DNA of 48,644 nucleotides, taken from assembly GCF_006345805.1 (NCBI RefSeq), contig NW_021834483.1, forward strand, positions 1 to 48,644, given 5' to 3'. The stretch's first letter is position 1; each line of letters starts with the position of its first letter. The notes under the pieces are model-generated. The model did not search any database and was not told where the DNA came from. It worked only from the letters and a program-made list of their open reading frames with translations. The translations under genes were made by a program, and so were the position numbers. Positions 6,300-46,479 of this stretch are shown here, in pieces. Source of the stretch: Octopus sinensis (lineage: Eukaryota).

Positions 6300-8405
6300 T
6301 TTAAATAAAATAACTTCTAAATACAGTTTGTAACATTCATCGATTCCGTTGTGGAAAGCTATTTTCGGCTTACGAAACCCACAGTATCTCGTGCTGCATG
6401 AGTGCCGGAAGAATCCTTCAGCAATTGTCTATTAACGATTTTATCCAAAGAGCTGTCTGTTAGGTTGGTTTTCCATCAATACTGTATCCACTGGACCCAA
6501 AAGGTCGGTTAATATCAATAAATTAACAATTATATCTTCCCTTCGTCTTGTTGAAGTAAGTTTATCACCAATTCTCTACCAAGAAATCTATAGCGGACCA
6601 CTAGCTCTCCTTTGGGTATGGCTAGGGTAGTTAAACACCTTAACCGGGCGTTTGGTTCATTCCACAACGCCAGTCATGCTTACTATAATTGGTCCACTTG
6701 GTACTGTAATTGTACATGTGCCTACAATCAAGTGAGTCACATATCTCAAAGTTTGAGAATATTATGCACCCATTCTGAGCAGAGATATCCAATCATTGGC
6801 TTTAACATATGAAACTTTTTTACGAACACCGCCTATCTTGAGAGAAATTTTGGAGAGAACTGGCTACTATATATGAATATTAAATAGTGGTCAATCTAAG
6901 ATCGTAAAAAATAGTCATTCCCATACTGCTTATTTAAACATTGGTTAATAAAAGACTTTTCTTTAGCACCATGGAACGGTTTCCTCGTTATAGGAAATTG
7001 GCCTTAATGCATTTAAAAACTCAGAAAGTTTTATATTAGCACAATAAGTAAAAACTTCTATATAATGCATAAATCTCTTGTATCATAATCTCTGCTGTTT
7101 TCTTCAGAGCAGGCGTCAGCGCATATATTTGAAAACTTTAATTGGTCTGAAGAAGTCCCATATAATCTTCACATTCGGAAAGTCATTCTATTTCCAAAAA
7201 TTTAAGATATTCCAAAGACGTTAAAAAGTTATTCCATTTTTTAATCAAAAGGATCTATGGTTTGTTATATCAAGAGAAATAATTCATTAGAGTGGGTTTA
7301 TAAACATTTGTGTTTTAAAAAATAATTATTGATAATTTTTATTATTTTATTCTATTTTTACGGAGAATCTCAACTCCAGAAAACCTCGGGTTAGACTAAT
7401 CACTGCCTAATTTGCTCACTTTTCGAAAAATACGGATACAGCGTTTCCGTCTTGTTCCTAAAGTAATAAAAAAATTTCCTAGTGGATATTGTCTAGCCTT
7501 GATCATCTATAAAATCCAAAATTGTGCAAATATGCACGGTTCAATATGATGAATTCATAATGATTCAATATAAACTTTTTTTCAATATAAACTATTGGCG
7601 ATTTTTAAAAAAAGAAATTTTATTTGCTTTTTATTAAGTTAATTACTTTTTTAAACAAACGATTAAAAAACCTTTCTTTTTCTTTTCGACATCAAATTTC
7701 ATTCCACATAAAATTTTACCAGAACCGCTCAAAATTGTTTACTGTACTAAATCTAAAAAGAACCTTGAATCTCGGTGAATATATATGACGGGCTCAATTG
7801 ACGAAGGAAACGCCTCGGATATTCGGTATAGTTTAGTCAAAATTCCAACATCCTTTGGCGTTAGGGTCCCGCTTGCTATTGAACGTAAGAAAAATTATAT
7901 TGTATACATTCCACAACAAGGCCATGCGTAGTCATCACGAGTAATCCCGAACGATTTTCAAGAGGATCATCTTCATGTAAAGACTGTCCAGGAAGAGTTC
8001 CTTGTATAAAAGTTTCCTCGTTTTCTGTTAAATTGTATTCTTCTTGTTCTAATTTTGTCTCCTCAATGACATGCTGGTAAAATTCCGTGTTATCTCGACA
8101 CGTTCTGAGAGAATGGTTGATATCTTTTGAATCATTATTTTTTTTAAAGAAATATCATAATCCTTTTCAAGTTTGTCTTGTAAATACATTTCACTAGCAT
8201 CTAGATTCCAATATTTTGTCTAAATTGTTAACATCTGCCCAGAATTACTGCTATCTATATTGATTATTTTTTGGAAATTACCATTAGCGTGCATTATTCT
8301 ATCCTGAGTGTCATCGCGATCTTCACTATTTTCATTATTATCCGATGAAACGACATTTGAATTTCCACTATTTGAGTCTAAAGTAGATTGACCAACATCA
8401 TCCAT
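6300..8405 (-). pseudogene. Decayed AT-rich reading frame, possibly a DNA-transposon (MULE-like) relic
   Basis: Broken frame from ATG 8405; a weak W..W...IAEGFF segment near 6400-6500 resembles the MULE TNNxxE region. Confidence 0.2.
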
Positions 8406-13248: not shown

Positions 13249-13329
13249 TGTTATTTAATAAAGCATTATCGTGGTGGCCACTATCGACTCTTCTAAAAAT
13301 TAAATGAATTACGTAATGTATCTTCATTA

Positions 13330-15029: not shown

Positions 15030-17075
15030 CGACGGGAGTTCTACGTCGAGAATAGAGTCCCAGGTACGTTGGAGGAGAAATCTTCGGGCCTCTCAGAAAA
15101 GGAGCGATCCCAGGTAGTGAGCCCATTTGAAAAAAGCACCATCCAGGCAAGATCCGAAAGATTTGAGTAGGATCTCAGAAACCAGGTGTGTTGCACTTCG
15201 AAAGGAAGGATAGATATGCCGGAAGTGCCACATCGGATGCAGTGCGGATTCCCGCACCTCCGAATCTCAGTGGGAGCGAGCATTGGGCCCATCCAGGACC
15301 ATCGAGGTGTACATTGAGGACGGATTCGGCAGTCTTTTTCAGGATTACGTCGTGTGCGGCGAGTAGGTCCATATGCAGGAAGCAGGGATTGCTCCTGAGG
15401 GTGAAAATGAGTTTCGGCATATGAATGCTGTTCTTCAGGAGGAAAAAGGCAGTGTGCGAGTCCAAGATAGAAAGATTTGTTGAAAGTCTTTGGAAGTGTT
15501 CGGCTTTGGCGGAAAGCATGCATTGGAGCTTCGTGTCGGACAGGGATCCACCGAGAAAGGTGACATCATCGATTGGGGTAACGTTCGCACAAGGCAGGGT
15601 TGCTCTGAGGCGGGCCACAGCGGATCGGAAATCGGCCCCCGAACACGAGACATTAATGATCTCGGTCTTCTTCGCGTTGACCGAGAGGCCGAGGGTAGCC
15701 AGTGCTGGTACGATGTGTTCGACATCCCGAATAACCTGGTCAGCATGGCCACCCAATGTGGCATCATCAAGATACCACAGATTGAATTGAGAGACAGCAA
15801 GGCGAGCTGCCTCATCGATTGTCATCGCGAAGAGGAGTGGCCCTAGCGGATCACCCTGTTGCACGCCGGTCTCCGAACGGATGATCTCATTCCCGTATAC
15901 AAGACTGCTCTCCGAGCCGTAGGCAAGCGAGACAAGATGGATTATTTCTGGTGCTCTTCGAGCGCATGTTTCCAAAATAGCATCCCGGCGCACGCTGTTG
16001 AAAGCGTTGGTGATATCAAGCTTCACGGCGAAAATCGGTAGTAACTCGTTGGCCCATGTAGAAGAACCCCTGGTGGCAAGAACAGCTCCTTCGCAGCCGC
16101 CACGCACACCAACACCGACTTGCGTAGGCGAAAGCTCGGCCCCGATTCTCGTTGCAACCTTCTGGCAGCGACTTTGCCGCAGAGCCTTCTGAAGTAGTTG
16201 CCAACCGCGATTGGGCGGACACCTCCGTCCGGTTTTTGAAAAGCGTGAAGGTGGGCAGCGAAAAAGAGATTCCTCGCGAAGAAGAGGATGCTTCCGTCGA
16301 TGATCCTTCCGACCAGTTTCGTGATTGAACACAAGAGCCGAGAGCCGGATTCCCCGGTGATCGCAGAAGTCATGTCCTTGATATGCCCGGACGAAGGCCG
16401 TCAATTCCCCCGCTGCTTGCTCCGAAAGATCTGATTCCCGACAGAACTTCTTCCTCAGTGATGATAATCGGTGTGGGGCTTCGGGGGGGAGTCCAAGGCC
16501 TTAGGTCTTCAGGGGCCGGCGGATGCTTTACCTCAGCAGAGTTGATGTTCTGGACGTACACTCGGCAACAGAGTCCCCGGAGCACAAGACTCGGAGGGCA
16601 GCTCTCACGTCTCCTTCGAGGAGCTTTCGATTCACCCGATCGATCATCCTGGCGTCCTGTCCGATGCCATTTTCGCATAAGCCGGACTTCCTCTGAGAGG
16701 AGGGAAGGGTAGGACAAGATTGTCGCATTCCTCGCCAAAGGAAACTGCCCGAGACTTAATTGCGGACGAGATTCCCTTGCGGGATTGGACGGCTCGTGCT
16801 TGTTCCCAGGACGAGAGGTGCAAACAGGAAGATACGGAACCACGGGAGGTCTTCTTCGGAACTGAGTGCTTCTGAGATAATTTGTTCTAGGCAAGAAGCA
16901 GCCGTCAGGCGTGCTTGTTTGGGGATACGGAGAGGGATGTCTCTTGTGCCACGAAGCGAGAACAGAATAAATTCCTCAGTCGAGAGATTGTGGGGGGTAG
17001 TGAGAGAATCCCCGATTTGACCCAGCGCCCTTTGAGTTGAAGAGGCAGCGGGCACAGTGCCATGCGCCCAAGAAT
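15030..17075 (-). mobile_element. CRE-clade non-LTR retrotransposon, frameshifted, truncated at both ends
   Basis: PLRIPKQARLTAA, GGIDGLRP, GGVRPIAVGNYFRRL, QVGVGVRGGCE, KLDITNAFNSVRR, GVQQGDPLGPLLF, WYLDD, LPLRFGGAGIR. WHCARC (PHD tail) at the 5' edge. No RLE domain. Confidence 0.93.
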
Positions 17076-17329: not shown

Positions 17330-18160
17330 CAATTTTTATAGATTTGCATTTGCGAGGCCGCTCTACACTAAGTCCTCAAATGAAGTTTGTGAAAACCTTA
17401 TTTTTCTTAAATGGTCCGTGTCAATTTTTCAGTCCGATAATGGGACTGAATTCAAGAATCGTGAAATGACCAATCTATGTGAGGAATTCAATATCAAACG
17501 AATTCACGGAAGGCCAAACAATCCCCGCTCACAAGGGATTGTCGAACGCTTTCAACCAGTCAATTACAAGAAAAATGGCAAAAAATGATCGACAATGATA
17601 ATAAAAAAGTGGCTGGAAAAATTAGAAAATGCAGTGTACAGTTATAACATTCTGTCCACTCATCTTCTAATGAGAGCCCTTTAAAAGATACCGGGGATAA
17701 GTGGAATAATACAATATTTTATGGTTGTAATTATAAAATTATTCCTTAGATAATTCAAGTAATGATTTGTTGAGTCCTGATCAAGTCGATGATGCAAACA
17801 ATTGTCCGAGTCCAATTGAAAATTCATGTAATTTGAATTTCTATATGTAGATGATTGTAATTATTCGTTTACAAGTCCGAAAAGATTGCGACTGAATAAG
17901 TTTGAATCTCCATATTATCATCTGCAGAAATTATCAGTATTTTATCAAACATCGCGTTGAGGTAGTTTAAACATTCAAATTTAATAGATAAAAAATTCGA
18001 TGAGCGAAATTTCGATTGTGCCAATGTCCAGACTTAAAAAATAATTAACAAGTTATTATTCTTTGAAGTTTAATATTAATTACAATATTGACATTAAGTT
18101 AAGCTGCAAAGTCACGTCAGGTATCGCGCGGCCCATAGGTATCACGCAAACCATGTCACA
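17330..18160 (+). mobile_element. Ginger/KRBA2-like DDE integrase transposon, 3' part with right terminus
   Basis: FAFARPL..QSDNGTEFKN..HGRPNNPRSQGIVERF..YSYN; ends ...CCATGTCACA (TGT..ACA termini). Confidence 0.8.
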
Positions 18161-19580: not shown

Positions 19581-20378
19581 GAATGTATTACACAAAGATA
19601 AGTATAATTTACGTATTTTTATAATAAATTTCAACGGATAACAATATCTATTGTTACAGTAAATAGAGATACCAGGAAATAGCGATCCGAAGTAAAATAA
19701 TTATAAAATTTTATATTGTCCAAATAGAGAAATCTATAAAGACAAATACTGTGCAGGACGATTTTTTCGTTAATTTGATAATTTTATAAATTAATAAATA
19801 GCTTACTACAAAATCTGCTTTAAAATCGTACAGGAATAATGAAAATATTTGCTTAAGAATAGATTCGTTTATTGTTTGAATTGATAAAGTAAAAACTGCT
19901 TTAGATTCAATTAATTTGGAAAGAAACCTTGCATTGATAAAATCATGTTATAGTGACATATTAGATGGATTACATCAATGCCAAGAAACTTTTTTTACCA
20001 TTGAGGATGCCGTTAAATTTATTAATGTAATAAATTTTGGGGATGATCCATGTGGAATATCTAAATATTTCCGTAAAAGAATAGATAAAAATCGATTAAA
20101 AGAAATTTATACTGCTAAGATTGATAATTGTTCACCAGAAGATGTTGGAGAACGATAGAAACTTTAAAAATGATAACATTAAATATTACTTTTCGTTATA
20201 TTACAATAAATTTGAGTGATTAGTTCTAAATATAAGCCTTATTAAAACTATATTAATACATAAAAATAAAAATTTATTAGGTCATATTAAGGGCATATAT
20301 TTTTTCGTTTAAGGTCATATAAGTCATATTTTATCGGTCATATTTGAAATTTTTTAGGTCATATTTGCGGTTGCCCTA
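19580..20378 (+). mobile_element. 3' portion of CGGBP-like hAT element (copy A)
   Basis: Ends in TIR GGTTGCCCTA at 20369-20378, with GTCATAT subterminal repeats. 19883-20378 is near-identical to the reverse complement of 22021-22512. Confidence 0.8.
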
Positions 20379-20386
20379 GTAATAAT

Positions 20387-21065
20387 GTATGTTAATTCGG
20401 ATTTATTTAAAATTGATTTGACGTATTAATTCATTCTTTTTCTTTTTGAGCCATTCCTTAGCTCTCTAACTGCAATCTCTTATCGACCATCACCAATCTG
20501 ATCCTCACTCCAGGATTGTTGTTCCATGGGCACGATTCCGTCGTCCTCAAATTGTCGTAGAGATTTTCGTTGTAGAAAATGAATGACTTCACTAACATCA
20601 CTCTCTTGAAAGTTCATTTCATGTCGGTGCTCCACTAACATGCTTTCAAGAGTTTTCTTTAGTACAATAGATTGAATATATGCCCTCGGAATAGTATCCA
20701 CACCCCAAAATCCACATATGATTTGTAGAATTTACTCACAATTCCCTTCCAAGTCATAATAATAGGGACAATTTTAACTTTCGCTTTGTATATTTGGCAC
20801 AACTCTCCAGCGAGGAGGTCGTATTTATGAAGTTTTTCAATCTCAACCACCTTCAGCATCTCCTGAGAAGTGATTCCGACCTCTACTAAAGTAATCTCCC
20901 TTGTCCTTTTATCGAAAACAAATATGTCCGGCTTGTTATGTTGTACTTTGATGTCTGTCATCAGCGTCGTATCGACTCTAATCTCAACATTCTCAGTTGT
21001 TACTATTGATTGGACTGAGTGAGTCTTCAGTTTCTTTGAATATCTCATGAACTGATGCTCAGCGA
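20387..21065 (-). mobile_element. 3' end of RLE-type non-LTR retrotransposon (R4/NeSL-like)
   Basis: HNKPDIFVFDK..TLVEVGIT..EIEKLHKYDLLA PD-(D/E)xK endonuclease. Confidence 0.85.
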
Positions 21066-21483
21066 ATAGAAAAGCTAAATAGAACAAAAATTAAAAAGGG
21101 GAATTTTAGTTAACTTAAATTAACCCCAGAAGCGACAAAAATTATAAATTTTCTAAAATATTCGCATCATATTTAAATTTAAAAATAGATGTACATTTTC
21201 TCCTTTAAAAGCGAGATTTTTACTGATTCTCTAACTAAACATAATTATAAACCGATTCGAAAAAGTAAACTATTAGAAAAAAATAAATTTTTCAAATGAT
21301 ATAACTCTAATTTACTTTATAAATATACTTTTTGTTTTTTCTAGAACATTTCTTACCGATTAAAAAAGCAATTGTAGTATTTCACCGTCGTTTGTTAGTT
21401 AGTATATTTAAGAAATTGCTAATTTTTATCTGGTTAATTTTTAAGGAATATCAATGTATTTTATGTAAAAAATTATTTATAAT

Positions 21484-21803
21484 TTATCCACCAAATCCAT
21501 AAATTGTCCTACCTTGACGTTTCAAGGCATTAACAAAATCCATTGCGATAACAGTTTTTCTTTTGGCATGTTCAGTGTAAGAAATACAATCACGAACAGT
21601 TTGCTCGATAAAAATTTTAAGGACAGAACGTGTCTCCTCGTAAATTTTTCCAGAAATTCTTTGAACACCTCCTCTTCGACATAGTCTTCTTATTGCTGGC
21701 TTAGTAATTCCTTGTATATTGTCAATTAATATCTTTCGAAATCGTTTTGCACCACTCTTTCCTTCATTCCTTGTATATTTAATTTTCTATTTATAATTTT
21801 CAT
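21484..21803 (-). CDS. H4: Highly divergent histone H4 variant (needs +1 A in a homopolymer to reach the ATG)
   Basis: [95 protein letters not shown] at 21803 gives a 320-nt span, one short of a full frame. Missed by the ORF track. Confidence 0.9.
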
Positions 21804-22020
21804 AAGCTTAACCAGGTTCTCATTTTCTACAACGAAAATCTCTACGACAATTTGAGGACGACGGAATCGTGCCCATGGAACAACAATCCTGGAGTGAGGA
21901 TCAGATTGGTGATGGTCGATAAGAGATTGCAGTTAGAGAGCTAAGGAATGGCTCAAAAGAAAAAGAATGAATTAATACGTCAAATCAATTTAAATAAATC
22001 CGAATTAACATACTTATTAC

Positions 22021-23137
22021 TAGGGCAACCGCAAATATGACCTAAAAAATTCAAATATGACCGATAAAATATGACTTATATGACCTTAAACGAAAAAATA
22101 TATGCCCTTAATATGACCTAATAAATTTTTATTTTTATGTATTAATATAGTTTTAATAAGGCTTATATTTAGAACTAATCACTCAAATTTATTGTAATAT
22201 AACGAAAAATAATATTTAATGTTATCATTTTTAAAGTTCTATCGTTCTCCAACATCTTCTGGTGAACAATTATCAATCTTAGCAGTATAAATTTCTTTTA
22301 ATCGATTTTTATCTATTCTTTTACGGAAATATTTAGATATTCCACATGGATCATCCCCAAAATTTATACATTAATAAATTAACGGCATCCTCAATGGTAA
22401 AAAAAGTTTCTTGGCATTGATGTAATCCATCTAATATGTCACTATAACATGATTTTATCAATGCAAGGTTTCTTTCCAAATTAATTGAATCTAAAGCAGT
22501 TTTTACTTTATCTAAGATTTTCCCTTTTTTGTTAAATTCAGGACCAGAAACTTTTTTTGTTAAACCAATTTAAAACAAAAATCATTTGGAATTGCAATCA
22601 ATTTCGATTGACGCAAGTCGTGTGTTTTACTTCTTTTTTTATGCATTTCCGTCTGTCTGTGTTGTTCCACGTTAAAACTTTTTGAAAAGTTTACCGGAAC
22701 ACAACAGAACTTGCAATTAAGTCCCCCATTAGTACTTCTCGTAAATTCGTGCGGATATTTATTTAATATTTTAGAGAGTTTGAATTCATTAGATTTTTTT
22801 GATTTAGGCATCTATTAATATACCTTTTTTTATATAAAAACCTTTATCTCACTCAACAAAAAACCGATTATATCTCACATTATAAAAAAATAATTTAAAT
22901 ATTATTATTCAAATATTATATTTAAAAAAATAAATATTAATCTAATTCATTAAAATATACAAAAATTTGAATATGACTTTATTTTTATAATATGACTTTA
23001 TTATTGAATATGACTTATATGACCTATTAATAAGTGTTTAAATAGTTAAAAAATATAATTAAAATATTTAATTAATATAAACAAACACAAAATGACCTTA
23101 TTTTGTGATAAGCATTATATGACTTTTGGTTGCCCTA
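22021..23137 (-). mobile_element. Internally deleted hAT with CGGBP1-like zinc finger (copy B)
   Basis: TIRs TAGGGCAACC / GGTTGCCCTA; 8-bp TSD (C/A)TTATTAC; ORF 22560-22811 LNCKFCCVPVNFSKSFNVEQHRQTEMH. Confidence 0.85.
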
Positions 23138-24129: not shown

Positions 24130-24470
24130 TAATTGTTCTTGTGGTGTACGGATGGTTGGCTTTTCGCAGTCTGAAAAGTCATTCCCATGAACGGATCCAC
24201 AGAAATCTTAACAAATGGAACTCAAGAAAGTGTGGACCTGACATTTCATGCTCATCCTGAAGCCTCGGGCAATTGCAATTACAATAACGGACCCCCACAG
24301 ACCCCTTCAACTTTGATTCTCATGAAAGCTATTTGTGAGTCGATCGAATCTTCCAACCCTGGAGAATGGATGTCATCTCTATTGATTTGTGTCAAAGACC
24401 GTCTTAAACGAGTCCCCAGAGGAAGTTGGCCGCTCATTGCTACTTATTTTAATTCCAAACTTGGAAAAAT
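24130..24470 (+). mobile_element. 5' fragment of a further CRE family
   Basis: LKRVPRGSWPLIA equals the CRE N-terminal xRIPKxAR..AA motif; possible frameshifted zinc finger upstream. Confidence 0.55.
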
Positions 24471-24619
24471 GAATTAAATATTTAATTGATATTGGATTAC
24501 CAGTCGAACAAAATTAAAACTATTTATATTTTTTTAAATAAAAATCAAATAAAAAAACACAAAAAGTATTATTATATGATAAAAATACATTTTTATTTTT
24601 GTCCCGTGATAAAATCTCA

Positions 24620-24785
24620 ACTTTATCCCAAAAGCTAACCTAACTTCAACCTTATCCATATCCCTAATTTTAACCATATCCCTAACCTTATCCCTAACCC
24701 TAACCTTTTCCCTATCCCTAACCTCAACCTATCCTTAACCCTTATTTTAACACAAGCCCCAACCCTAATCTATCTCCAACTTTAA
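24620..24785 (+). repeat. Degenerate (CCCTAA)n telomere-like array
   Basis: About 27 hexamer variants (CCCTAA, CCTTAT, CCTCAA, CCCTAT). Confidence 0.8.
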
Positions 24786-25489: not shown

Positions 25490-25879
25490 TATTCACGTAA
25501 ACAACTACGTCTTTTACACGGAATACACTGTCCATCAAAAATTAACAATCTATCTCTGTATAAACATTACGATGCTACCCCGTTGTCTCAAGAAATCGTT
25601 GAAGGCCGGTGGAAATTATTTGACCATATTTTGCGAATGGACCCCAGAGCTCCGGCCAATCGGGCAATGGACGATTATTTCTCCGAACATGGAGACAAAT
25701 TTCGTGAAAGACCTAGATACACTCTTCCAGCAGTTCTGGAAAGGGATCTCAGACTTCATGGCAAAAGTTTCAAAAACTGGGACGACCTAGAATCTTTGCG
25801 GGATCTCGCCCACAACAGAGGGGCATGGACGAGGATGGTCCGGAAGATTGTTTCGCTTGTGACACGTGTGGGATTATAA
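25490..25879 (+). mobile_element. RTE-like LINE 3' fragment
   Basis: RWKLFDHILRM..PANRAM..RERPRYTLP..LAHNRGAW. Confidence 0.8.
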
Positions 25880-26200
25880 CTTTGTTTATGTTTCTACGGA
25901 AAACATTATATAGTAATTTGTACAATATTTGTGTAACATGCCGTAATAAATCTCGAACTCTACGAGCTATCGGAATACCCAGCTGCTGTTCACGAATGGA
26001 GATCGCTCGGATTTGACCTCGCCGAGATTCTTTCCATACAGAAGAGTGGATGTGTTGGCTTATCAAGTGAATCTTGGTCGCTATGCTCCAAAAAAGAAGC
26101 TAATTTCATCGAAGTAGTCTTTACTTCACAAGATCGATTAAGATCGTTTTGTCCCGTGATAAAATCTCAACTTTATCCCACAAGCTAACCTAACTTCAAC

Positions 26201-29095
26201 ATGTTGTTAAGTGAAACTATCATTCCGAACATCATTCCAAAAAGAGAGAACACGATATGCTCTTCCTGCGAACTGAGCAACAAACGCCGGTTTGGCATGA
26301 ACTGTTCATCTTGCGGTGAATTTTTCCATCTTTCATGTGTTAAAATCACCAACAAAGCAGCAAAGACGCTATACAAATGGGATGTCGTCGATGCATGAGT
26401 TCTTGTACAAACCGAAATTTCAATCCTCCTGAAATAAATATGGCGCCTAACCCGCCTGATCTTCCCTCAAATACAGATCTCATCCTTCTAAACCTATCGG
26501 AGCTACGGAAGTCCAGGAAGATTCCTCTAAGGATTCCGAAATCCGCTTGTATTTCTGCTGCTTCATGTCTAAGCCAGCTAATTGATAATGCTCTCTCCAC
26601 TAACAGCTTGGCTTCTTGGGTTCAATTGCTGAGCCTTGCACCTGTTGCTCTTGGAGTACAATTCAAAAACGCTACGCAGAATGAGTCCATATCCTGTATT
26701 ATCAAGAGAAATATAAAATCAATTGATGACAAAATACACCACACAAAGCTGAATGAAAGACGAAATATAACTCTAAACTAGGATAGCATAAAAGACAGAG
26801 TGAATAGGAAACTCATTGAGGGTGATATCCGTGCTGCTTTGCGCGTCGTGAGCAACGATGATACGGTTTTAGCCCCGACTCCTTCAGTGATCGAACATCT
26901 GATACGTAAACACCCTTACCCACCTACGGACTACCAAGAATTCACTATGCCGGAAAATTTGCCCAGCCTTATCATCACCGAACAGGAGGTGATTTTCGGA
27001 ATCGTGTCGTTTGCTCCAAGCAGCAGTGGAGGCTTGGAGGGCCTGCGACCGGGACATGTCAAAGATCTTACTGCGAAATCAGTTCATAGTTCAAATCTGG
27101 TTAAATCCATTACGTCGCTGGTTTCTAAAATTGTCAATGGAAAGATCCCTTCTTATGCAAGGGAACTACTATTCTCCGCGCACCTATTGGCCTTTAAAAA
27201 GAATGACGGGGAGTAAGACCGATCGCAGTTGGTAATTACTTCAGAAGACTTGCGGCAAAGATTGTCGCTAAAAGAGTTTGTCCGCGGATAAGCGGAGAAC
27301 TTTCGCCAGTCCAATTGGGAGTCGGTATTACAAATGGATGTGAGGCCTCTGTGCATGCGACAAGATGCTACTTTGGCTGTAGTGCGAAAACCCCCGCATG
27401 GGGCTCAAAATAGACATATCTAATGCTTTCAACACACTGCGACGAGATCGACTTATGGAATCGTGCTGGAAGAGAGTTCCGGAGATAATTCAGATAGTTA
27501 ACCTCTCTTATGGGAAAGAATCGTCTCTAGTCTTCGGTAACGAAATTATCAATCACAAACTGGAGTACAGCAAGGAGATCCACTAGGACCTTTACTGTTT
27601 TCGTTGGCCATCGATGATGTTGCACGTTCAACTGGAACTGAACTCAATCTCTGGTATCTCGACGATGCCACTATCGATGGAACTTGGAAATCAGTTTACG
27701 AAGGAATTTCGCAAATTGCTCCTGCTTTGAAAAACCTCGGTTTGGAAATTAATACAAACAAATCGGAATTGATCAATATTACGTAGTCCAATAACGAATT
27801 CATGCGAATTACTCAACAGTTCAACCATTTGCTTAAAGGGATTTCTACCACGGCTCGGGACGAGGTATATTTCCTCGGTGGTCCACTTGGTGACGCAGAA
27901 TTGCGTAAGCACCTTCGGAAGAAAGCAGAAAACCTATCACTATTTACACAACGAATATCCCTCCTTGATGCGCATACTGCGTTTTTTCTCATGAGAGCGA
28001 GTATCTGCATGCCAAGACTTCTTTATGCTCTAAGGAGCTGCCCTTGCTATGCACAACGAGACAGCCTTTTATTACTTGATCAGACACTGAAAGACACGGC
28101 CGAAACTATTTTAAACGTTCGCTTTGATGATCTGGGATGGACTCAGTGTAAACTGCCGACGAAATTGGATGGAGTTGGCCTCAGGTCCGCATTGGAAGTA
28201 GCAGCACCAGCTTATCTCTCGTCGCTCTCAAGCAGCCGGGATCTGGTCCAGGAAATTCTACGTAACCCTTCTGAATTTTCCTTGGAGCCGGAGTTCGCTA
28301 GAGCTTGTGAACGGTGGAGTGGAACTGGGTTGATGATTCCGGCGGAGACATTCAAACAGACTAACTGGGATTCGATTTTATGCAACGACATTGTCCAAAA
28401 ATACAAACAGAGGGCCAATCAGCATCGACTCACATGTCTCTTGTCCGGAGCACGCCATCATAGTGACGCGTGGCTTGATGCTCTCCCGTGTCCTGCCCTT
28501 GGTAATCTATTGGACAATAATTCTATGAGAATCGGTGTAGCACTTCGTCTGGGACTGGATATTTGCCAAGTTCACGGCTGTCGTTGCGGAGGCCTTGTTG
28601 ATGCCAAAGGATTGCACCTCTATCCTGCGGAAGAAGTGCAGGTCGAACCCCTCGACATGCCGCATTGAATGATGTGATACGACGTGCCCTAGAGGCAGCA
28701 GGATTCCCAGCAAGACTGGAACCTGCGGGTCTTAACCGTAATGATGGGAGAAGGCCAGATGGAGTGACTCTTTTCCCCTACTCTGGGGGAAAACCACTAG
28801 TTTGGGACTCGACATGCGTGGACACTTTCACTCGAAAGAACATCAACATTTCCTTGCGTTCATCTGGATCGGCCGCTAACTTTGCTGAAAAAGCAAAAAT
28901 TGCCAAATATTCCACAATCGGAATTCGTACCGCTTTGTTCCTGTGGCAGTCGAGACTTCGGGTGTCACAGGAACTGTAACTGAGTCATTCCTTAAAGAAA
29001 TCGGACGTAAAATCGCTCATATAAAAAACGACTGGAGGGAACCAACATGGCTTCGACAAAGAATAGGATTGGCCGTTGTTCGCGGCAATGCCTTG
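26201..29095 (+). mobile_element. Near full-length CRE-clade retrotransposon: PHD finger - RT - CCHC - RLE, with several indels and stops
   Basis: CSSC..CSSCGEFFHLSC..W.CRRC; PLRIPKSA; VRPIAVGNYFRRL; KIDISNAFN; WYLDD; AWLDALP; CRCG..H; RRPDG..WDSTCVD..EKAKIAKY; GLAVVRGNA. Confidence 0.95.
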
Positions 29096-29692
29096 AAATT
29101 TTTTTATAAATTAATGAGAGGGATTTATTTAGGAATAATAAAAAGCTGATACTCACGGTCAACTCCATATTTTTCTAAGTCACGAGGCATCTGAAGAGCA
29201 GCCAAGTAAAACCAAATTTACGTACTCGTGTTAGTGAGATTGTCTTCATTGGTGAGCTGAAACGTGATAAAATGACGCCAACTTAGGAATTGAGAAATAC
29301 GTCAAAAAATTAATGGAACATCTTACAAAAAGACAGCACATCTTCTTAACGATGGCAAGATCTACCGGAGGTCCCCTTGAAGAGGAGTATCTTGCCTATG
29401 AGAAGTGTGTTAGGAAATTTGAACCGAACATCCTCTATAAAACGCCATTTTCAAATTATTCACAGATCATTATCTGAGAAAACTAATGATGAACAATGTG
29501 AAACAATTGCATCTCGACAAAACAAGGACCCAGTACATTTGTACGGTAGAAAGTAAAATAATTTGTTTCAATATCAAATACACAGATTATATTCGAGGTC
29601 GAAATTTCCGGGGAGTAAATATGACCATGTTAAACAATTCGTTTCTGAATAAAAATGGCGGAATATTTCGTGGCGACTTTCAAAAAAGGCAA

Positions 29693-30414: not shown

Positions 30415-30860
30415 AGCCAAGATTTGAGATGACTGTCCCCTTAGGCAGCAACTAATGTTCCTTGAACACCATAATCTTAAAAATAATACGTACAGTTCTT
30501 TCAGCAACCCCACAAGCCTCGCTCACTTCTACAACAAATCACATAATACAACCTTCGGTGTCTTTTGGTTTCCGCGGATGACCACCATTAAAAAACGCTG
30601 AAACAATCATTGGGTCTCACAACGGTCTTTTATGCGCACAAAATTCAATTAAAAAATTATATATTTCTGGTTACGCTTCACTTTATGCTTCCGATGCAAC
30701 TCTGACTTATCCAAACTAGAATAGATAGTTCGGGTTTGTTACAAAAGTATTTTCGACATGTACTTCGACAATATATCCTAGAAGCAAGCAATTCTCCCGC
30801 TCTATTTTAGGGAAATCTGCCTACAATTACCTAAGGATGTTGTTTTACCTACCTATTTGT
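30415..30860 (-). pseudogene. Decayed TFIIB-like C-terminal cyclin-fold fragment
   Basis: After removing 24-nt intron 30529-30552: EEVSEACGVAERTVRIIFKIM vs TFIIB [21 protein letters not shown]; stops present. Confidence 0.5.
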
Positions 30861-30869
30861 CCTTCCGAC

Positions 30870-30957
30870 TATGTTTGTTTAAGAAGTGCGGCCCAGGCAC
30901 AAGCCTGGCTTAATGCTTTTCCACTTCCGTCGGTTGGTAGCAAGCTTGATAACGATA
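30870..30957 (+). mobile_element. CRE internal micro-fragment
   Basis: CLRSAAQAQAWLNAFPLPSVGSKLDND. Confidence 0.75.
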
Positions 30958-32504
30958 AACATTTTGTCGACATTTCTCACACAATATTGTTGAATGACGG
31001 ATGTTCGATTGAACGATGGTAAAAACGCACAAGAAACGAATCAAAAAATAAAGATCATACATAATCACAATCTTTTTAGTAGATAGATTTAGAACTGTTT
31101 TATGTAAGATAAAAGCTAGTATCTTTTATTTATAGTTCATTGTTAATGCAAGTTCTTGTGCATTATAACTTTAACAAATTATAAAAATTTGAAGTATTTT
31201 TTTCAACCTGTAGCGATCGGGAATGTCCATCGCCTGTAACACATTATTCCAACTAATAGCCATTAAATATTAAATGAAAATTACAAGTAACACAACTGCT
31301 ATTGTAATCCAATACACAAGAGGAGTCATTTTAGCTCCAGATAGTCTACTATCTATAAAGTCTTACATTTCAATTCAATATATCCTGTTTATAAACGTAA
31401 TTTACCCTTCTACACAAAAAAATCGTTCACATTTCAACAAATTCAGTCATCTCGATGTCCGGATCGTTGTTAGAAAAACTCTGCAGATCCAGACATTTCC
31501 TGACATTACTCACCAAAAAGAATTGGACTGCATCTTTTCAAAATTTACACAAACAGGAAAAATGAAAAAAAATAAATTTCACAAAATTAGACATAAACCT
31601 TAATTTTTAATCAAAAATACGCACTTTTGTACTAAAGCAAGAAAATTCAATAATTTATCAAAAATACTAAAAAAATATGAATATAGTGAAGATATTTTAC
31701 AAGTACAAAAAATACATAAACGACAATATTAAAAAAATTAAGTATTTATGAAAAGAACAAAAAGACAAATTATTATATTTATTATACACGATTTTGCACA
31801 ACTAAATTAATCAACTCAAATATATATTTTCTATTCATATCTGATAATGATTACTACACAACAAAGATCAACAAATCGTTGTGACCTCGGTCATATCAGA
31901 ACTTATTCCTTTCTCATACAAATCGAGACATTTATAAATAAAAAATTCCATTTTAGATCATTTCAGTTTCAGTAATACAGTCCGACCTCGATTTGGAACA
32001 GACCTCGGGGCTGGAACACCTTAGTTTTTGGAACAACCTCAGTTTTTGGAACACTTTGTAGGATCTCTGCCTAGAATAAATAATTCCTTTTAAATGAAAA
32101 CCTCGATTTGGAACAAAATTTATTATTATTATTTATTTCTAGTCATTAAAAAATTAATTAATTTGGATTAAAAAAACTCCACGCTAAATTATTATGGGTC
32201 TCAGTTACGAGAAAAAGGTTGAAATTGCTCGACAACTAAAAAGTCATTCACACAGAGTACTTGCTCAAAAATATGAAACGAGCATTGGCACAATTGCTCG
32301 AATAAAAAAACGATTACGCCGCAAATAACCTGTGGGAACATTATTCCAAATTTTCGGACTGAAACAAAAACTGACGATATTTTTAAAACATTGGATAGTA
32401 AAGTTCTCGACGTTTTTCAACAATTACGGCTCCAAAATATTCCAGTTTCAGGTCCTCTTATCAAAAAAATTGGTAATTTTACTTTTTCTCACATTGTTTT
32501 AAGG

Positions 32505-32672
32505 TTTGAAAATTGCGGGTAAATTGAGGCGTATTTCTTCCGCTTCGTCTCCTCGGCCCGACGGGAAGTAAAGCCGGGGGAGGACGCAGACTGAGCAACG
32601 GTCCCGGGGGCAAAGGTGTCCGCGCAGGTAACATCCCAAACGAGACATTTTCCCTCCGAGAATGGAAAGATC
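32505..32672 (-). mobile_element. CRE RLE micro-fragment
   Basis: FPFSEGKCLVWDVTCADTFA..AEETKRKKY. Confidence 0.85.
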
Positions 32673-32829
32673 ATAAATATTATTTTTATGGGCTAATTAT
32701 AAAGTTTAACTATGCCTTGTATTGATTTAAATTTGTTTTTGTTCATGTACTTAAATAATTTAAAAAAGTTATTTTTTAAATGTTGGTAAACCTAAACTTG
32801 TTGGAAAATTTTTAGCGTGCTAGATTTGT

Positions 32830-33775
32830 TTCTTGTAATGGCTTCTTATAGAGGTTATGTCAAAGATTCTTCAGAGTAACGAATTTTAAAAGATGCTTTG
32901 TAAAATAAATTCCCGGAAGTTTTTTTAGGCAAGCAAAAATAGACTTATAAAAAAAGATCGAGAATTTTACAATAATCAATTAAGGGTACTCTAGATTTAC
33001 GATTAATGCGCAGATTGTATTACTTTGGACAATGAAACTGAAATGGAGCATGTAGCTAAATCTCTACATGAATATTCACAGGGAGGAGTATATAAGTTGA
33101 TTCGAAAAAAAGACAAGTATAATCAGTTGCTAAACAATTTGTTATAACTGTTGTGTTTTTCAATCAGAAAAGTCATTCGAAATTGTGAAGTATGTAAATT
33201 TGCCTGTCCATTGAAAGTTTTAATTCTTTTTAATTTTTAATGTAGGTTGGTGATATGAATCATCATATCTTTGCTTCTTCTCCGAATGAAAGGTTTCAGC
33301 TAGATCTTGTAGATCTAAAAAAGTTTTCAGTCGTAAATAATAATTGTAGGTTGGTAGTAGGTGTTTATTGTGGTTGGTAGTAGGTGTTCCGGATGGTCTT
33401 GGAGAATTGTCGTCAAACATGACTAGTATTGGGGATACGCATGGAAAGAGACACTTCGGTGCCTTGTTTTTATCTCCCCGCCGATGTTTTTCTTCCTTGT
33501 TTTTCTTTTTCTTTTCGCTCAATAAACACTATTCTATTCTATATTCTATTGTAGTAAACAATTTATTCAGATTTGCATTTGTCAGACCACTTTTTCATAA
33601 ATCTTCAAAAGAAGTATGCAACAACTTAAGATCACTTATCTATCTATATGGACCTTGAAAAATTTTGCAATCAGATAATGGTTCAGAATTCAAGAATGTG
33701 TCTCTGAGAGATCTATGCGAAGAGTTCAATGTAGTTCAAATACATGGAAGACCAAACAATCCCCGTACACAGGGG
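32830..33775 (+). mobile_element. Ginger/KRBA2-like integrase fragment
   Basis: CEVC zinc motif, ERFQLDLVDL, FAFVRPL, LQSDNGSEFKN, HGRPNNPRTQG. Confidence 0.85.
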
Positions 33776-34139
33776 ATGGATAAATTCGAGTATCCATTCT
33801 ACCCGGGCTCTGAAATAATTAACATTTTATTAAATAATCGAGTCGAGGCAAATCAATCATTTTTATTTAATAGATAAAATAAACAAATGATTAATTTTAA
33901 TATTTTTTGTTAAAATGCATTATTCTTTCAAGTTGTCTGTTTTTTGTTAAAATGTGTTCCAATTCAAGGTCGGACTGTACTTTAAAAATGTAGCCGACAG
34001 TGACAAAAATAAAAATTGAATTGTGTAGATAGAAGAGTTTTAAATTCGGTATTCCTTGGAAATTTTACATAAGAATCAATAAAAATTGAAAAAACACACA
34101 TTTTCAAGTGGTCACGTTTTTTTTGAACAGACTGTATGT

Positions 34140-39665: not shown

Positions 39666-41138
39666 CTAATTAAAAGATGAAAGTAAATAAATAGAATCAA
39701 TGGAGCGGAAATTCACATATTTCACAACGAGATGATCCCCCTGCATTAATAAACCTACATTTCGAACAACCAATCTCCTCATCAGAATGCACTGAAATGA
39801 CTCCCTCAACCAGAGTCAATAGCAACTCCCACAAGCTCTATCAACGACCTCATTTCTATTCCGTGACGGATCCTCGACAACAAATCACGATTCCCGTCCC
39901 TCACAGCCACCAACAAATCCCCAATAAAAGTCTAAATATCAAAACGGCATAATTTCACATCAAGTGAGGAAAACTCAGAACTAGTGAGAAAAACAAGCAC
40001 GTGAAAGTCTCCTATGCACTCCAAAAACGAATCGTACCCAAACTGCTGCCAATACTTCGCAAAACCCAACAAATTCTAAAAAATAGCTAAAAAGAATAAA
40101 ACTTGTGCTTCAAAATGGTCAGCTCGGTTTTCAATCGCATAAAATGTTTTAGAAACATCAAGAGGGAGTGAATAGACATTGGTCTTGGGAGTTCCCACTC
40201 ACAACTCAGTAATGAGGAACTCGTTGGGTACTGGTCTGGTCAGTTGCTTTACATTATTGCCGTAACAGTCAGTTTTCTAGACATTTCTACCCCAAGTAAC
40301 CGACCACATAAAATACGTCAGGGACATACTGATTGTCAGTTGATTCCTTTACGTATGACATCCCAGAACACCCGATAGTGGGCACAAGCAGTCCTTCCTT
40401 CACCATACACTGCACAGAAGCCTGGTATGCCTCGAGATGGATTTGCATGTCTTGTCCGCCTGCAAGTATTTCTATTAGAACAACCAGTGGCCACGACTGT
40501 CACAAATTTGGACCCATAATAACCCCCGTCGGCCAATTTGCACGGATTCGGATACTTGTTCTGATGATAGGCCGCAGTTATACATTCCTGCGAGCTCAAA
40601 TAATACGATTTCTAGCAATATAAACACTCCAAACAACATCATTCCCCCGAAAGTGCTTTACAGTCCCAGCACTCGAATCTGCTGACACCAAATCCATAAA
40701 AATCCACCCAACAACGACCAATCCCAACTGGGCGGATATCCACCGAATATTCTCTTCCCGAGAATCCTCCAACAACTCAATTCCATCACGACTGGACACC
40801 TAACCCTCCAAAAATACAACAATCACTTGAGGAGGCTCATAAATGGCCACTACGACTGCTTTAATCCCCAAAGGAAATTGTTCCATCACTTCATACCTCC
40901 CAAACAGGATTCCAGCCCTTCGATTTCCAGTTTTCCCCCCAAAAATGGAGAAACCTCTGAACCATTGTATCATTTTCGAAAGAAACAAACTCCACATGTC
41001 TATACTCCTTCAAAACACACATTTCATGTAAAAATAAACCTGTCGATTCAACGTGATGGCCCCAGGCTGACATTGAGAACAGATCCCGGCCGGATATGGC
41101 TTGTGGAGGGGACAGGACTGGTCAATCTTACATTTCGT
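39666..41138 (-). pseudogene. NPLOC4: NPL4 3' piece (zinc finger 2, MPN, CTD, NZF), multi-exon
   Basis: CKIDQSCPLHKPYPAGICSQCQPGAITLNRQ|[79 protein letters not shown]. About eight mini-introns, one homopolymer frameshift (40935-40940) and one in-frame TGA (40199-40201). Confidence 0.93.
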
Positions 41139-41196
41139 TAAGCGCGCGCTCAACGCCGCTGGATTTCATTCGGTCCTGGAACCGGTTGGGTTAGAC

Positions 41197-43423
41197 CAGG
41201 GGTTCTCAAGTGCGGCCCCGAGAATCTTTTTTGCGGCCCCGACTTCCAAACTTTAAAATAAATTTTGGATATAAAATTAATTGTAAATTAATATTATTAA
41301 AGATAATATTTTAACTACACGTGTTTGTAAATATATTTCAGGTTGAGTATTTTTTCATGCCATCAAAGAAATATCGAACATTATCTCAAGAAAATAGAGA
41401 ATTTCAAATTGAATGGGAAGAAAAGTTTTTTTTCGTTGAACTGAATGGTAAAGCTGTTTGTTTGATATGCAACTGTGTCATTAATTCATTGAAAAATTAT
41501 ACTATTGAACGTCATTATAAGAAGCACTCCGAAATATACAATTTATATCTCGGAGAGTCAAGGAAAAAAAAACTCAATATATTAAAGACGTCATTTAAAA
41601 ATCAGTCCTCAATATTTAAACCAGTGGAAAATAAGCATCAGTTATTAACGTCTTATAAAATTAGCCACCTTCTTGCTGTAAATATGAAACCTTATTCTGA
41701 CGGAGAAATTATTAAAACTGCTATTTCCATTTTTTGTGATGAATGTTGTCCGTCAAATATACAAAATATTGCAAAACGATTACCATTAAGTAATGATACT
41801 ATTACAAGAAGAATAGAATGTATTTTTGAGGACCTTGCCCGTCAGCTAATCAAGTTCTTTACTATTAAAAATAATTTTTATAGAACATCGAAAGATTTTT
41901 TATATCATTCTTTTGCTGTCGACACGAGTAAAAATATCTCTGATACCGAACAAATGGTCGTATGCATTAGAGGTGTCACTTCGGATTTTAAAATTTCTGA
42001 AGAATTTTTTTCTCTTCGTTCATTAAAAGGCACTACAAAAGGAATGGATGTACTTAACGAATTCCTTGAAAGTATTAAAGAATTTGACATTGATCCTTCC
42101 AAAATAATTTCCATATGTACTGATGGGGGGGCGAATATGATTGGTCGTAATAAAGGGTTTCATGGACTTTATTCAGAATGGAGACTTGAAAAAAATCTTG
42201 ATCCTATATTTTGGCAACATTGTATCATTCATCAGGAGAATATAATCGCAAAGTCACTTAAAATGCAAAATGTAATAAGTACGGTGTTGTCCATTGTGAA
42301 TTGGATACGCGGTAAATCTCTCAATCACAGGAGATTTAAAAAAATGTTAGTGGAAATTGACACAGTGCATAATGATGTGCTTTACCATACCACTGTTCGA
42401 TGGTTGAGTCGTGCCGCGTGCCTCAAAAGGTATATTGCTTGAATAGAAGTTAGATTTTATGAACTACTCCCTCAAATAAGAGAATTTGTTAAAGACCACA
42501 AATACCATGATTTGTTGAGCAGTAAAGAGTGGATTGCCGATTTAGCTTTTTGGGTAGATCTAACCTCTCATTTATCGTCGTTAAATTGTGAATTACAGGG
42601 GAAATATAAATTTTGCCATCAACTCTATGGATCTATTGCTTCTTTTATATCAAAATTAAAACTTTGGAGGGATCAAATAATGCTCAAAGATACAATTCAT
42701 TTTACTTGTTTGAGTGAAAATAAAGCTAACGGTTCATTTGAAAAATATACTACCATTATCAGTCACCTTATTGTTGAATTTGAAAAACGTTCTAAGGTTT
42801 ATTAAAATTTAGTTTATTTTAAGAATTTTGATGAAATTTTGCCATCAATGAAAATTTTTGCAGCACCATTCAATATAGATCCTAAGAATGCTCCGCCATC
42901 ACTCCAATTAGAATTGATAGACCTTCAATCAGATGTGCAATTTACCTCAGTGCAAAAGATTGAAAATTTAATGGAATTTTATAGTTCACTTCCCAAAGAA
43001 AAATATCCGAATATACTCATAAATGCTTATAAATATGCTTCAATGTTCGGATCCACTTATTTATGTGAGTCAATTTTCAGTAAAATGATTCACATAAAAA
43101 ATAAATATCGAAATAAATTGACTGATAATCACTTATGCCAGCTTTTGCGATCTACATGTGCCTCCTATATTCCGTGTTATGACAAATTAGTTAACAATTA
43201 GTTAAAATAGCTAACAATTTTTCGTTTTAGTTAACAATTTTTCGTTTTAGTCATTTTCCTTTAATTAATTAAGACTAACTATCTCGGTTTCTGAATAAAA
43301 AATGAATCTAAAAAAAAATTAGTTAAAAGTTAATGAAAGTTTTAATTTAATTTATTCTGCGGCCCCGAAGACAATGGTTAATTATCGATTTGGCCCCGAC
43401 GTTAAAAAACTTGAGAAACCCTG
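41197..43423 (+). mobile_element. Complete Buster/SPIN-type hAT transposon (2227 bp)
   Basis: TIRs CAGGGGTTCTCAA / TTGAGAAACCCTG; perfect 8-bp TSD GGTTAGAC (41189-41196 and 43424-43431); GGCCCC subterminal motifs. Confidence 0.97.
41357..43201 (+). CDS. Spliced hAT transposase (~587 aa), GTF2IRD2/SPIN-like
   Basis: BED finger CLIC..H, SFAVD, CTDGG, CIIH, RWLSR, STYLCESIFS. Introns 41854-41883, 42430-42453 and 42797-42823 join the three ORFs into one open frame. Confidence 0.92.
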
Positions 43424-44484
43424 GGTTAGACCGTGGTGACGGAAAACGTCCCGATGGGTCCACGCTATTCCCGTTCAAGGGGGGACTCGCTCTCGTTTGG
43501 GACGTCACCTGTGTCGACTCGTTTTCCTCGTCATCTCTCATCGACTCTGCCTCCCGCCCTGGCTCACCCTCCGCACATGCCGAATCGGAAAAATCGCAGA
43601 TCGGCGATTCCTTTCGGAGATCGGCTTGATGATCTCGAGGAAGAGTCACAAGAGACGTGAGTCTAGCTGGCTTTTTCAGCGCAATATCGCGAGGGAAATG
43701 CGCTGAAACTGCCTGTCTATTCGCTCGTCCTCTCAATCAAAGAATTAACGTGGATGAATTAGAATTTAATTGATTAATTTGGAAAAAATAGTTATATCTG
43801 AGTGATATTGATTAACTAGCAATTCTACTTTGTCAATGTTGACACTATTATTTTGATCAATTCTGGTTTCATGTGGACCTCGCTTGATCCCAACAAGTCA
43901 GAGAATTGTTTTTTTCATCGTCTCCTACCCGGAGCAACTATTCATTAAAATACAACTGATTCAAGATTAATTGAACTGCAAATATGTCCTCTTTTACTAA
44001 TTGTAGAGCGTATGAGTAGAAAAATAATATTGCCTAAGCGTTCCTTGGGATCCATTCTCTGTCTTGTAGAATGAGCACACTGAAATCAACAATGTAATTC
44101 ACAAAGCCCTGGAAAGACCTGGTTTTCCTTCAGTTCTAGAACTGACAGGCCTTGATCTTGAAGATGCGAAACGTCTAGACGGCTGTACGCTTTTGAATCC
44201 GGGAAGCAGCTTGTTTCCGAATCTTTCGCCAAGCGAGCTTTGAATTTCACTGCATGTCGACCCGGTTCGTCGGCTGAGAAGACGAATCCACGAAACTGTC
44301 GAAATACGATGATTTGTGCGATCTGTGTTTTCGGGGCCAAGACGCTTGCTCGTCTAAAGAAACTTGGCCGTGCACCCATCGCTCCAGAGATCCCAGGGAA
44401 TTTATATTCCTTATTCAGAAGATGTTTTTAAACGGGAATTATCTCTCAATCCTGAGAACTAGTACTTAATAACTAGAATTCTCT

Positions 44485-45230
44485 CCCTCGACCAACACCG
44501 CTTGGCCTGCTTTGAGACGGCATGTCGCCCTCACAGCGGAGCCTGGCTAAATGCCACTCCACTGCCGAGTATTGGGAACCTTCTGGACAGTGAGTCCCTA
44601 CTGACTGGAATTTGTTTACGTCTTGGTCTTCGCCTATGCGAGCCACATGTCTGCCGCTGTGACGCGAAAATCTGTCGTTTTGGACTGCACGCTTTATCGT
44701 GTAGACGCAGTGCTGGCCGAATCCCGTGGCACGCGGCTCTTAACGACTTTATCAGGAGAGCTCTGGAAGTCGCCGGAATCCCCTCCCTGCTTGAACCCTC
44801 TGGGATCGATCGGGGGGACGGAAAAAGGCCTGACGGGATTACTGTGTTTCCCTTCAACAAAACGAAGCCTCTTACCTGGGATGCCACGTGTGTGGACTCT
44901 TTCTCGCCTCAGAACCTGCTGATGTCCGCATCCGCCCCTATTGTCACAACCGCGGAATGCAAAAAGATGCGGAAGTACTCCTTACTTACGGAGAAGTTCC
45001 AATTTCTTCCATTCGCGGTCGAGACTTCCGGTTCCTTGGGTGGTAAGGCAATCAGCTTCGTTCAGGAGATCGGGTCCCGCATGTCTGCTATCACAGGCGA
45101 CGCCCGCGAATCAAGATGGTTTTTCGAGCGGATATCCCTTGCGATAGTACGCTCTAATTCTTTCTCGATCGCGTCGGCTTCCCGTCCATGAAGCTTTCAA
45201 CACTTGACCGAATTCTTTTTTCGTAATAAA
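44485..45230 (+). mobile_element. 5'-truncated CRE copy, CCHC plus RLE in an open frame
   Basis: GAWLNATP..CRCD..HALSC..KRPDG..WDATCVD..KKMRKY..AIVRSN; ORF 44502-45191. Confidence 0.92.
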
Positions 45231-45404
45231 CATATCAAAAAAATAACTAGCTTATTCCGTTTTCCATCGATATTTCTTTTACATTATCTTCATCAATATC
45301 TAAACATTATAAAATTTGAGTCATTTTCATTCCACATAAATGTACTATACTCTTTAGTACACTGAAATAAGATAAACGATGACTTTTTCGTTGATGAATG
45401 AATA

Positions 45405-46102: not shown

Positions 46103-46479
46103 TACTTATAGACAACTGAATAAAAACTCGTAGATCATTCGTGATTTTCTTTTACAGTCTTTTTTGTAACCAACGCGATGAATCTTTCAATTTGACTCTG
46201 TGATTGAAGGTGTTTCGGGCGACTAAACTTCTGTAGAATAATAAAGTAACTATTACCAGAGGTGAAGGCAAACGCATTGACGGCTTAACTAAATTCCCCT
46301 TCGAGCAGGGAAAATCCCTTTTTCTCTTTTTCTAACTATCCATAAATTAACTCTGTAAAAATAAAAAAAATTAATTCTCAAAGTAACTATTTCATTTTTG
46401 AATTCTTTACCGTTTTCTGTTTTTAATATTTGAGGAGGTCCAAAATTATAAAATAAATCTTAAAATAAAAGAAATTAAA

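Follow-up and report, generated by a model that had tools for sequence, protein, structure and literature searches.

A decayed R2-like retrotransposon of Octopus sinensis headed by a basic PHD finger that lacks the methyl-lysine cage

The stretch of DNA analyzed here (the window) comprises 48,644 nt of AT-rich eukaryotic DNA from contig NW_021834483.1 of Octopus sinensis. On its plus strand lies a non-LTR retrotransposon of the single-ORF, R2-like type whose copy is dead (Table 1). When mapped by tblastn with relatives, one colinear ORF extends from position 26222 to about 29100 and comprises a PHD finger, a helical extension, the reverse transcriptase (RT), the thumb, a CCHC knuckle, and a restriction-like endonuclease (RLE); the match to the relatives ends near position 29095. 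A single ORF in which a YxDD-type RT is followed by a CCHC knuckle and a PD-(D/E)xK endonuclease is the layout of RLE-type non-LTR retrotransposons. Six frameshifts and two stop codons damage the reading frame. Contigs of one public DNA sequencing run span positions 26200-27004, 27018-27368, and 27339-28963 and differ from the window in 12, 5, and 18 letters and in 1, 1, and 4 gaps, respectively. Since these gap counts equal the frameshift counts of the corresponding stretches, related copies that are about 98.5% alike probably possess open frames, a conclusion drawn from the number of the gaps and not from their positions, and the frameshifts in the window copy may be an assembly error. Among the sequencing runs listed, one DNA run and no RNA run contained matching reads.

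Table 1. Coordinates of retrotransposon features in the window, together with the USP-bearing relatives
Feature	Position or protein	Strand	Remarks
54-nt stretch upstream of the PHD ATG	26147..26200	+	second copy at 24597-24650; probably outside the element
N-terminal PHD finger (C4HC3)	26201..26400	+	first Cys 26258, last CRRC 26383-26394; one frameshift after Trp; basic, without methyl-lysine cage
Linker and conserved helical N-terminal extension (IPLRIPK...) into RT	26383..27213	+	one stop at 26779
Reverse transcriptase, thumb, linker	27186..28570	+	QGDP 27571-27582, YLDD 27655-27666; three frameshifts, one stop (27784)
CCHC knuckle and restriction-like endonuclease (RH..E..RPD..D)	28575..29100	+	PD 28755-28760; two frameshifts
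Second, diverged element of the same branch	15100..17062	-	begins at PHD remnant; without RLE end
WHCARC, final two zinc ligands of truncated PHD	17045..17062	-	
Knuckle-region fragment, same kind	6314..6511	+	
Decayed thumb/linker fragment, same kind	30629..31010	+	
RLE fragment, same kind	32426..32785	-	
Short knuckle-region fragment, weak	41122..41235	+	E 1e-6
RLE fragment, same kind	43384..43745	+	
5'-truncated piece(s), same kind: linker, knuckle, RLE, and stop, then a short tail	44034..45260	+	
Short RLE fragment, weak	46246..46323	+	E 2e-5
USP-bearing relatives	P0007, P0012, P0018, P0021, P0022, P0026, P0034, P0042, P0049, P0050, P0060, P0071, P0116		C-terminal PF00443

The PHD finger is recognizable despite its damage. 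The pattern CSSC-x11-CSSC-x4-H-x2-C-x13-W is read in frame between positions 26201 and 26395 (plus strand), while the last ligands, CRRC, lie in a different frame, which fits the loss of one nucleotide after the Trp; in a six-frame search for C-x2-C..C-x2-C-x4-H-x2-C, this finger was the sole instance. The profile check with PF00628, which the initial annotation had proposed for family consensus sequences and which was run here on the truncated window frame alone, yielded 27.6 bits against a cut-off of 24 (E 2.9e-6). A family profile built from the C4HC3 fingers of relatives, which is circular for its training members, gave the window finger 38.3 bits, and 20 shuffled versions reached at most 2.2 bits. 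Identification as a C1 or RING domain was rejected, as the Pfam scores for these lay below that for PHD and the fold matches were PHDs. Because two intact relatives, P0001 and P0002, can be aligned colinearly over the whole length, PHD through RLE end, the finger heads the RT-RLE ORF. Ligand pattern, Pfam match, and colinear intact relatives thus uphold the original description of the locus as a PHD-headed RT-RLE polyprotein with a one-nucleotide deletion.

In the second long element, WHCARC is found about 35 codons before IPLRIPK, with one frameshift between the two; the spacing amounts to 16-51 residues in 14 of the 15 relatives examined. WxCxxC occurs three times in the 97,284 codons of the window, so that about 0.003 occurrences would be expected by chance in the slot that WHCARC occupies. 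Only the last two of the eight zinc ligands are left, and neither Pfam nor the family profile detects a PHD in this element. That a second family keeps WHCARC at the same position therefore agrees with the spacing in relatives and with the low chance expectation, even though the motif by itself is only a remnant; the claim that the PHD is not a chance fusion also proved correct, but on the strength of the relatives and not of this remnant. The two long elements share 51% amino acid identity over 314 RT columns. Nine RT-RLE pieces of the same kind, these two included, are scattered over the window, and DNA similarity among them is detectable only between the two long ones; since it is limited to 70-72% in two patches, the latter represent different families. 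A further candidate N-terminal piece (LKRVPRGS) at 24130-24470 (plus strand) reached a best E-value of 0.047, which is not significant, and was left out of the count.

Several other features share the window with these elements. The 3' end of a different high-copy LINE, which we take to be RTE-like, lies directly upstream of the PHD element at 25490-25880 (plus strand), and a piece related to it is present at 11621-11690 on the opposite strand. At 24597-24780, the copy of the 54-nt stretch is followed by degenerate CCCTAA telomere-like repeats. A 700-nt inverted repeat, 98.9% alike, flanks 1.2 kb at 19883-22512; inside it, a minus-strand fragment has the look of an RLE domain (KPDIFV...LVEV) and is presumably R4-like. 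Two fragments at 17327-17560 (plus strand) and 33556-33777, the first of which adjoins the second element where the latter is truncated at its 5' end, are 70% alike and, we assume, integrase-like (SDNGTEF...PQSQG-type motif). Positions 41315-42442 (plus strand) contain a hAT/SPIN-like transposase ORF of 375 amino acids with a Spin-doc zinc finger slightly below the cut-off. A host cyclin N-terminal domain is encoded at 10777-11382 (minus strand), and a decayed stretch at about 12900-13250 (plus strand) presumably resembles the C-terminal half of a Sar1/Arf GTPase.

With the RT of the second element as the query, we retained as relatives the best 120 of 418 matches, proteins of 771-2200 amino acids. 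Among these best 120 of 418, YxDD is present in 119, the knuckle together with RH in 111, and EP..PD..D in 100. A precomputed PF00628 assignment exists for 10 of the 120 (best of 418), the C4HC3 pattern occurs upstream of the RT in 24, and the family profile detects a PHD in 31, partial fingers counted. The head is readable in 74 of the best 120 of 418 relatives; in the other 46, the ORF begins too late. Assigned by eye and profile, with Pfam checks on subsets, the heads of these 74 comprise 26 basic PHDs, five acidic PHDs, 16 C2H2, 11 SAP, and six CCHC-type heads, one RFX alone, and nine others. The named relatives within the same best 120 of 418 stem from barnacle, sea spider, springtail, moths, and octopus, with the PHD in sea-spider and springtail proteins, and four of 80 metagenome loci (L015, L020, L045, and L054) carry the domain. 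P0021, P0124, and locus L045 (1878-2220) possess a tandem pair of PHD fingers at the N-terminus. 

In a quick maximum-likelihood tree of the RT core (122 rows, midpoint root, no outgroup, no bootstrap), the two window elements are sisters (SH-aLRT 99) and fall inside a 45-row branch (SH-aLRT 91). Counted over the best 120 of 418 relatives, 24 of the 26 basic PHDs and 12 of the 13 USP proteins fall into this branch, and it has none of the C2H2, SAP, RFX, or CCHC heads; the C2H2 heads, 16 in the 120, are all located on other branches, and the acidic PHDs are distributed over four separate ones. In the ESM Atlas, clusters of 201 and 97 members bear the PHD on 42-53% and RVT_1 on 36-41% of their proteins, the values for the 201-member cluster being 42 and 41%. 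As relatives, tree branch, and ESM Atlas clusters all carry the PHD, its combination with RT and RLE is neither a chance fusion nor rare. Capture of a host PHD was considered as well, and no donor was found among 23 matches in 1.84 billion representatives; nine of these are fingers of the window type, five of which have the helical region of the element next to them (E at most 1e-21); the others are either host proteins or unrelated. A word search with the PHD region of P0002 returned only P0002 itself, and an alignment search among longer proteins returned one protein; both were uninformative.

A USP/UCH deubiquitinase domain (PF00443) follows the RLE in 13 of the best 120 of 418 relatives. 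By pattern, the Cys box is present in 12 and the His box in six of these 13 proteins. Two are annotated as barnacle ubiquitin hydrolases, and P0083 carries an N-terminal OTU protease instead of a C-terminal USP.

The nearest solved PHDs to the window finger by sequence are those of CFP1, Alfin-like proteins, DIDO, and PHF2, and the closest by sequence and fold (CFP1, Alfin-like, DIDO, and BPTF) are mostly H3K4me readers. A PHD fold is predicted for the relative P0127, not for the window copy, with pLDDT values of 90-97 across the finger; the top matches of the model are PHDs, and Alfin-like PHDs superimpose with an rmsd of 1.2 Å over about 50 residues. In the full-length model of the relative P0001 (pLDDT 93.7), the finger is followed by a disordered linker (60-69) and then by the core, for which R2 and L1 ORF2p are structural matches (Z 16-19). 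The predicted helical region behind this linker aligns with the N-terminal extension of L1 ORF2p and R2; used alone, it matched no structures beyond generic bundles.

The aromatic cage of PHDs that read H3K4me3 contains a Trp that never varies, and an acidic pocket for Arg2 is often present as well, while PHDs that read H3K4me0 have an acidic cluster ahead of the first Cys (PMC3241642). The window finger carries I/G/S/F at the four H3K4me3-pocket positions that are Y/M/D/W in the CFP1 PHD; it has neither the invariable Trp nor the Tyr/Met of the cage, nor the acidic residue of the Arg2 pocket, the KRENTI stretch before its first Cys contains one acidic residue, and its net charge is +7. Backbone pairing with H3 and the Ala1 pocket may still be available to this finger whatever its side chains, since these contacts rely on main-chain atoms (PMC3241642). 

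Among 32 fingers of the window type, a set that includes P0014, which was mis-parsed by the pattern, Trp at His-2 is found in five, both cage positions (Trp plus Met/Trp) in two, and at least two acidic residues ahead of Cys1 in six, and loop 1 carries two or more K/R in 31; their mean charge is +5.6, and the basic residues differ among family members. In a control of 22 host PHDs from eight proteins, chosen by similarity to the window PHD and not at random, 19 have the Trp and 14 both cage positions, with a mean charge of -0.9. The suggestion that the window finger reads H3 tails is thus at odds with the loss of its cage and acidic pocket residues and with its strongly basic character. Acidic PHDs of retrotransposons occur in P0011, P0020, P0077, P0104, and P0112 and in loci L015 (301-459) and L054 (279-422), in two cases followed by RFX. 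Those that could be parsed (P0011, P0077, P0104, and P0112) retain both cage positions in four of four cases and have a mean charge of -3.3. Judged by their residues, the cage-intact acidic PHDs would be better candidates for reading H3K4me3 than the window finger.

R2 elements (R2Bm, 8gh6 and 8ibw-z; R2Tg, 9dou and 9nl3; turtle R2, 9nl2) likewise consist of a single ORF with an N-terminal binding module, RT, CCHC knuckle, and RLE; they are the best PDB sequence matches (E 2.7e-22), and the structural alignment covers about 700 residues. However, identity in the structural alignments is only 15-17%, R2 carries C2H2 fingers and a Myb domain where the window element has its PHD, and the 28S target site of R2 was not seen at the long window elements. 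In its overall sequence style, the window element is, as we take it, like animal CRE families. It probably belongs to the CRE group, given this style and one automatic name, as the protein P0016 of Nymphon striatum is auto-named 'SLACS protein'. The RLE motif order C..C..H..C, RH, E, R/KPD, D/E is alike in the CRE clade (CRE1/2, SLACS, CZAR, Cnl1, MoTeR, and FoTeR), whose REL motif is given as C-x1-3-C-x7-8-H-x3-4-C-x9-10-RH[D/N]..E..[R/K]PD..[D/E] (PMC12857005). Read strictly except for any residue after RH, it occurs in 32 of the best 120 of 418 relatives, and it is a motif common to R2. The residue after RH is mostly A/S in the relatives, in contrast to the D/N of the CRE clade; D or N was found in 11 of the 111 relatives with knuckle and RH (from the best 120 of 418).

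N-terminal C2H2 fingers are typical of CRE elements, though not obligatory, and the window element carries a PHD instead. FoTeR and MoTeR have such C2H2 fingers (PMC12857005), and FoTeRs target telomeres, whereas the window branch is PHD-headed and appears dispersed. PHDs are common in CR1/L2 LINEs, where a role in genome targeting has been proposed but is untested (Metcalfe and Casane, 2014; PMC4120745). There, the PHD likewise sits at the N-terminus of the LINE protein, sometimes in a single ORF (PMC4120745), but an APE endonuclease precedes the RT, whereas the window element has an RLE at the C-terminus. The BLAG elements of Blattella and the HERO clade resemble the window branch as non-site-specific RLE retrotransposons with variable N-terminal fingers (PMC7650587); the BLAG elements differ in being described near the R2 superclade and with zinc fingers, and the word PHD is absent from the main text of that paper. 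Most RLE clades insert at specific targets, HERO to a lesser degree, and Ulp1 proteases are found in NeSL/Utopia elements (PMC4640811). The available parts of PMC13580325 and PMC5678591 contain nothing on PHD.

No shared flank was seen among the nine window pieces, and no fixed-repeat flank (spliced leader, telomere) at the window elements, whose copies are truncated and decayed. The reading of dispersal hence concerns copies from different families that are decayed and truncated and whose junctions are not precise. Metagenome contigs mostly end at or near the element, and the flank matches they share are other repeats. Rfam has a single match in the window, at 6576-6852 (minus strand): a piece of LSU rRNA, a diverged eukaryotic fragment (99.7 bits) 65 nt from a retrotransposon fragment. 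A 28S rDNA target is unsupported, as the neighbor of this piece is a truncated internal fragment and the piece does not lie at a 3' end. The 54-nt repeat was rejected as target or target-site duplication, for its second copy is situated 1,550 nt upstream and not at the other end of the element; the stretch itself is probably foreign to the element, because the related contig that covers 26200-27004 carries a different sequence of 83 letters before position 26200.

From the architecture, its conservation, the loss of the cage residues, and the charge, all of them observed, and from the fold predicted on relatives, we infer the most likely binding partner of the PHD and the insertion behavior of the element. 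By analogy with R2, the RLE at the C-terminus would nick the DNA, and the RT would copy the element RNA at the nick (target-primed reverse transcription). A swappable N-terminal slot would hold the branch-specific PHD on a flexible linker, and this finger would have kept its zinc fold, lost its H3K4 pockets, and acquired a basic K/R cluster in loop 1. On balance, we lean slightly towards the view that the basic PHD serves as a low-specificity nucleic-acid grip in place of zinc fingers. It would grip target DNA, nucleosomal DNA, or element RNA with little sequence choice and would do the job of the C2H2, SAP, or RFX modules of the sister branches; as a consequence, insertions would be scattered, with no histone mark to guide them. 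A precedent is the BAZ1A PHD, which has no cage or acidic residues, failed to bind histone peptides when tested on an array, and contacts DNA via two lysines (PMC5636791); like the window finger, it combines the absence of aromatic cage and acidic pocket with a basic patch, but it belongs to a host chromatin protein. PHD2 of BRPF2, another host PHD, is probably similar.

A different reading, in which recognition of a histone feature by the PHD directs the RLE towards a particular state of chromatin, would draw on the nearness of the predicted, true PHD fold to chromatin readers, on the presence of 12 of the 13 USP relatives (best 120 of 418) in the same branch, which would fit work on chromatin, on the acidic PHDs of other branches with both cage positions in all four parsed cases, and on the appearance of this idea in print for the PHDs of CR1/L2 (PMC4120745). 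For the window finger, recognition would have to be non-canonical, for instance of an unmodified H3 or H4 tail via backbone contacts or, by means of the K/R cluster, of the acidic patch on the nucleosome. We consider this doubtful, since the cage and acidic residues are gone and the finger surface is basic, which disfavors the basic H3 tail as a ligand. The initial annotation had favored chromatin-guided over sequence-guided targeting; the conservation of a PHD in an RT-RLE lineage and the lack of any indication of a fixed repeat target in our data agree with it, but its basis in H3 reading by the window finger does not hold. Chromatin-guided reading is consequently not supported for this finger and would fit the cage-intact relatives better.

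The PHD might instead be a protein-interaction or ubiquitin-pathway module that docks host factors, assists RNP assembly, or promotes nuclear import via its basic cluster and takes no part in target choice. PHD fingers bind non-histone proteins as well (PMC3241642), the USP fused to members of the same branch has its Cys box in 12 of 13 proteins (best 120 of 418 relatives), and the K/R cluster could be a localization signal; nevertheless, the same slot is filled by DNA-binding folds in the sister branches, and several PHD relatives have no USP, so that we regard such a role as improbable. Very improbable, in our judgment, is a sequence-specific DNA reader akin to the R2 zinc fingers, whose short target motif would be hidden by the decay of the copies. 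Although the CRE, R2, R4, and NeSL clades are mostly target-specific (PMC4640811) and the finger occupies the slot of the zinc finger/Myb module of R2, Rfam detects no rRNA, snRNA, or spliced-leader family beside the two long elements, the basic residues are not constant from member to member, and the PHD-bearing metagenome copies in L020 and L045 have 3.7 kb in common but are flanked by unlike sequence.

Taken alone, the dead copy in the window is unremarkable, and its value lies in its family. The initial annotation had made the novelty of a PHD-CRE architecture depend on its not being already common in curated families; the architecture is common in public proteins (31 of the best 120 of 418 relatives; the 201-member ESM Atlas cluster), while our literature search, with Repbase Reports, subscription papers, and most supplements outside its range, found no paper that describes a PHD on an RLE or CRE element. 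Apparently, a widespread branch with a non-canonical PHD is thus undescribed. One RT-RLE core is found under PHD, SAP, RFX, C2H2, and CCHC heads, and the PHDs come in two types whose predicted chemistry is opposite, one basic without a cage and the other acidic with its cage intact, which offers a comparison for the idea that LINE PHDs guide integration. R2-type proteins are under development as gene-insertion tools, and the role of the N-terminal module is the main question in their retargeting. A rather doubtful but far-reaching possibility is that a large and old RLE branch has swapped the reading of sequence for that of nucleosomes, its basic PHD engaging nucleosomal DNA or the acidic patch and some members adding a USP that could strip ubiquitin from target chromatin, while the PHDs acquired by sister branches, in some cases along with RFX, would have their cage intact and read H3K4me3. 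If this were true, the N-terminal slot would represent a natural collection of exchangeable targeting heads from which R2-type gene writers could draw.
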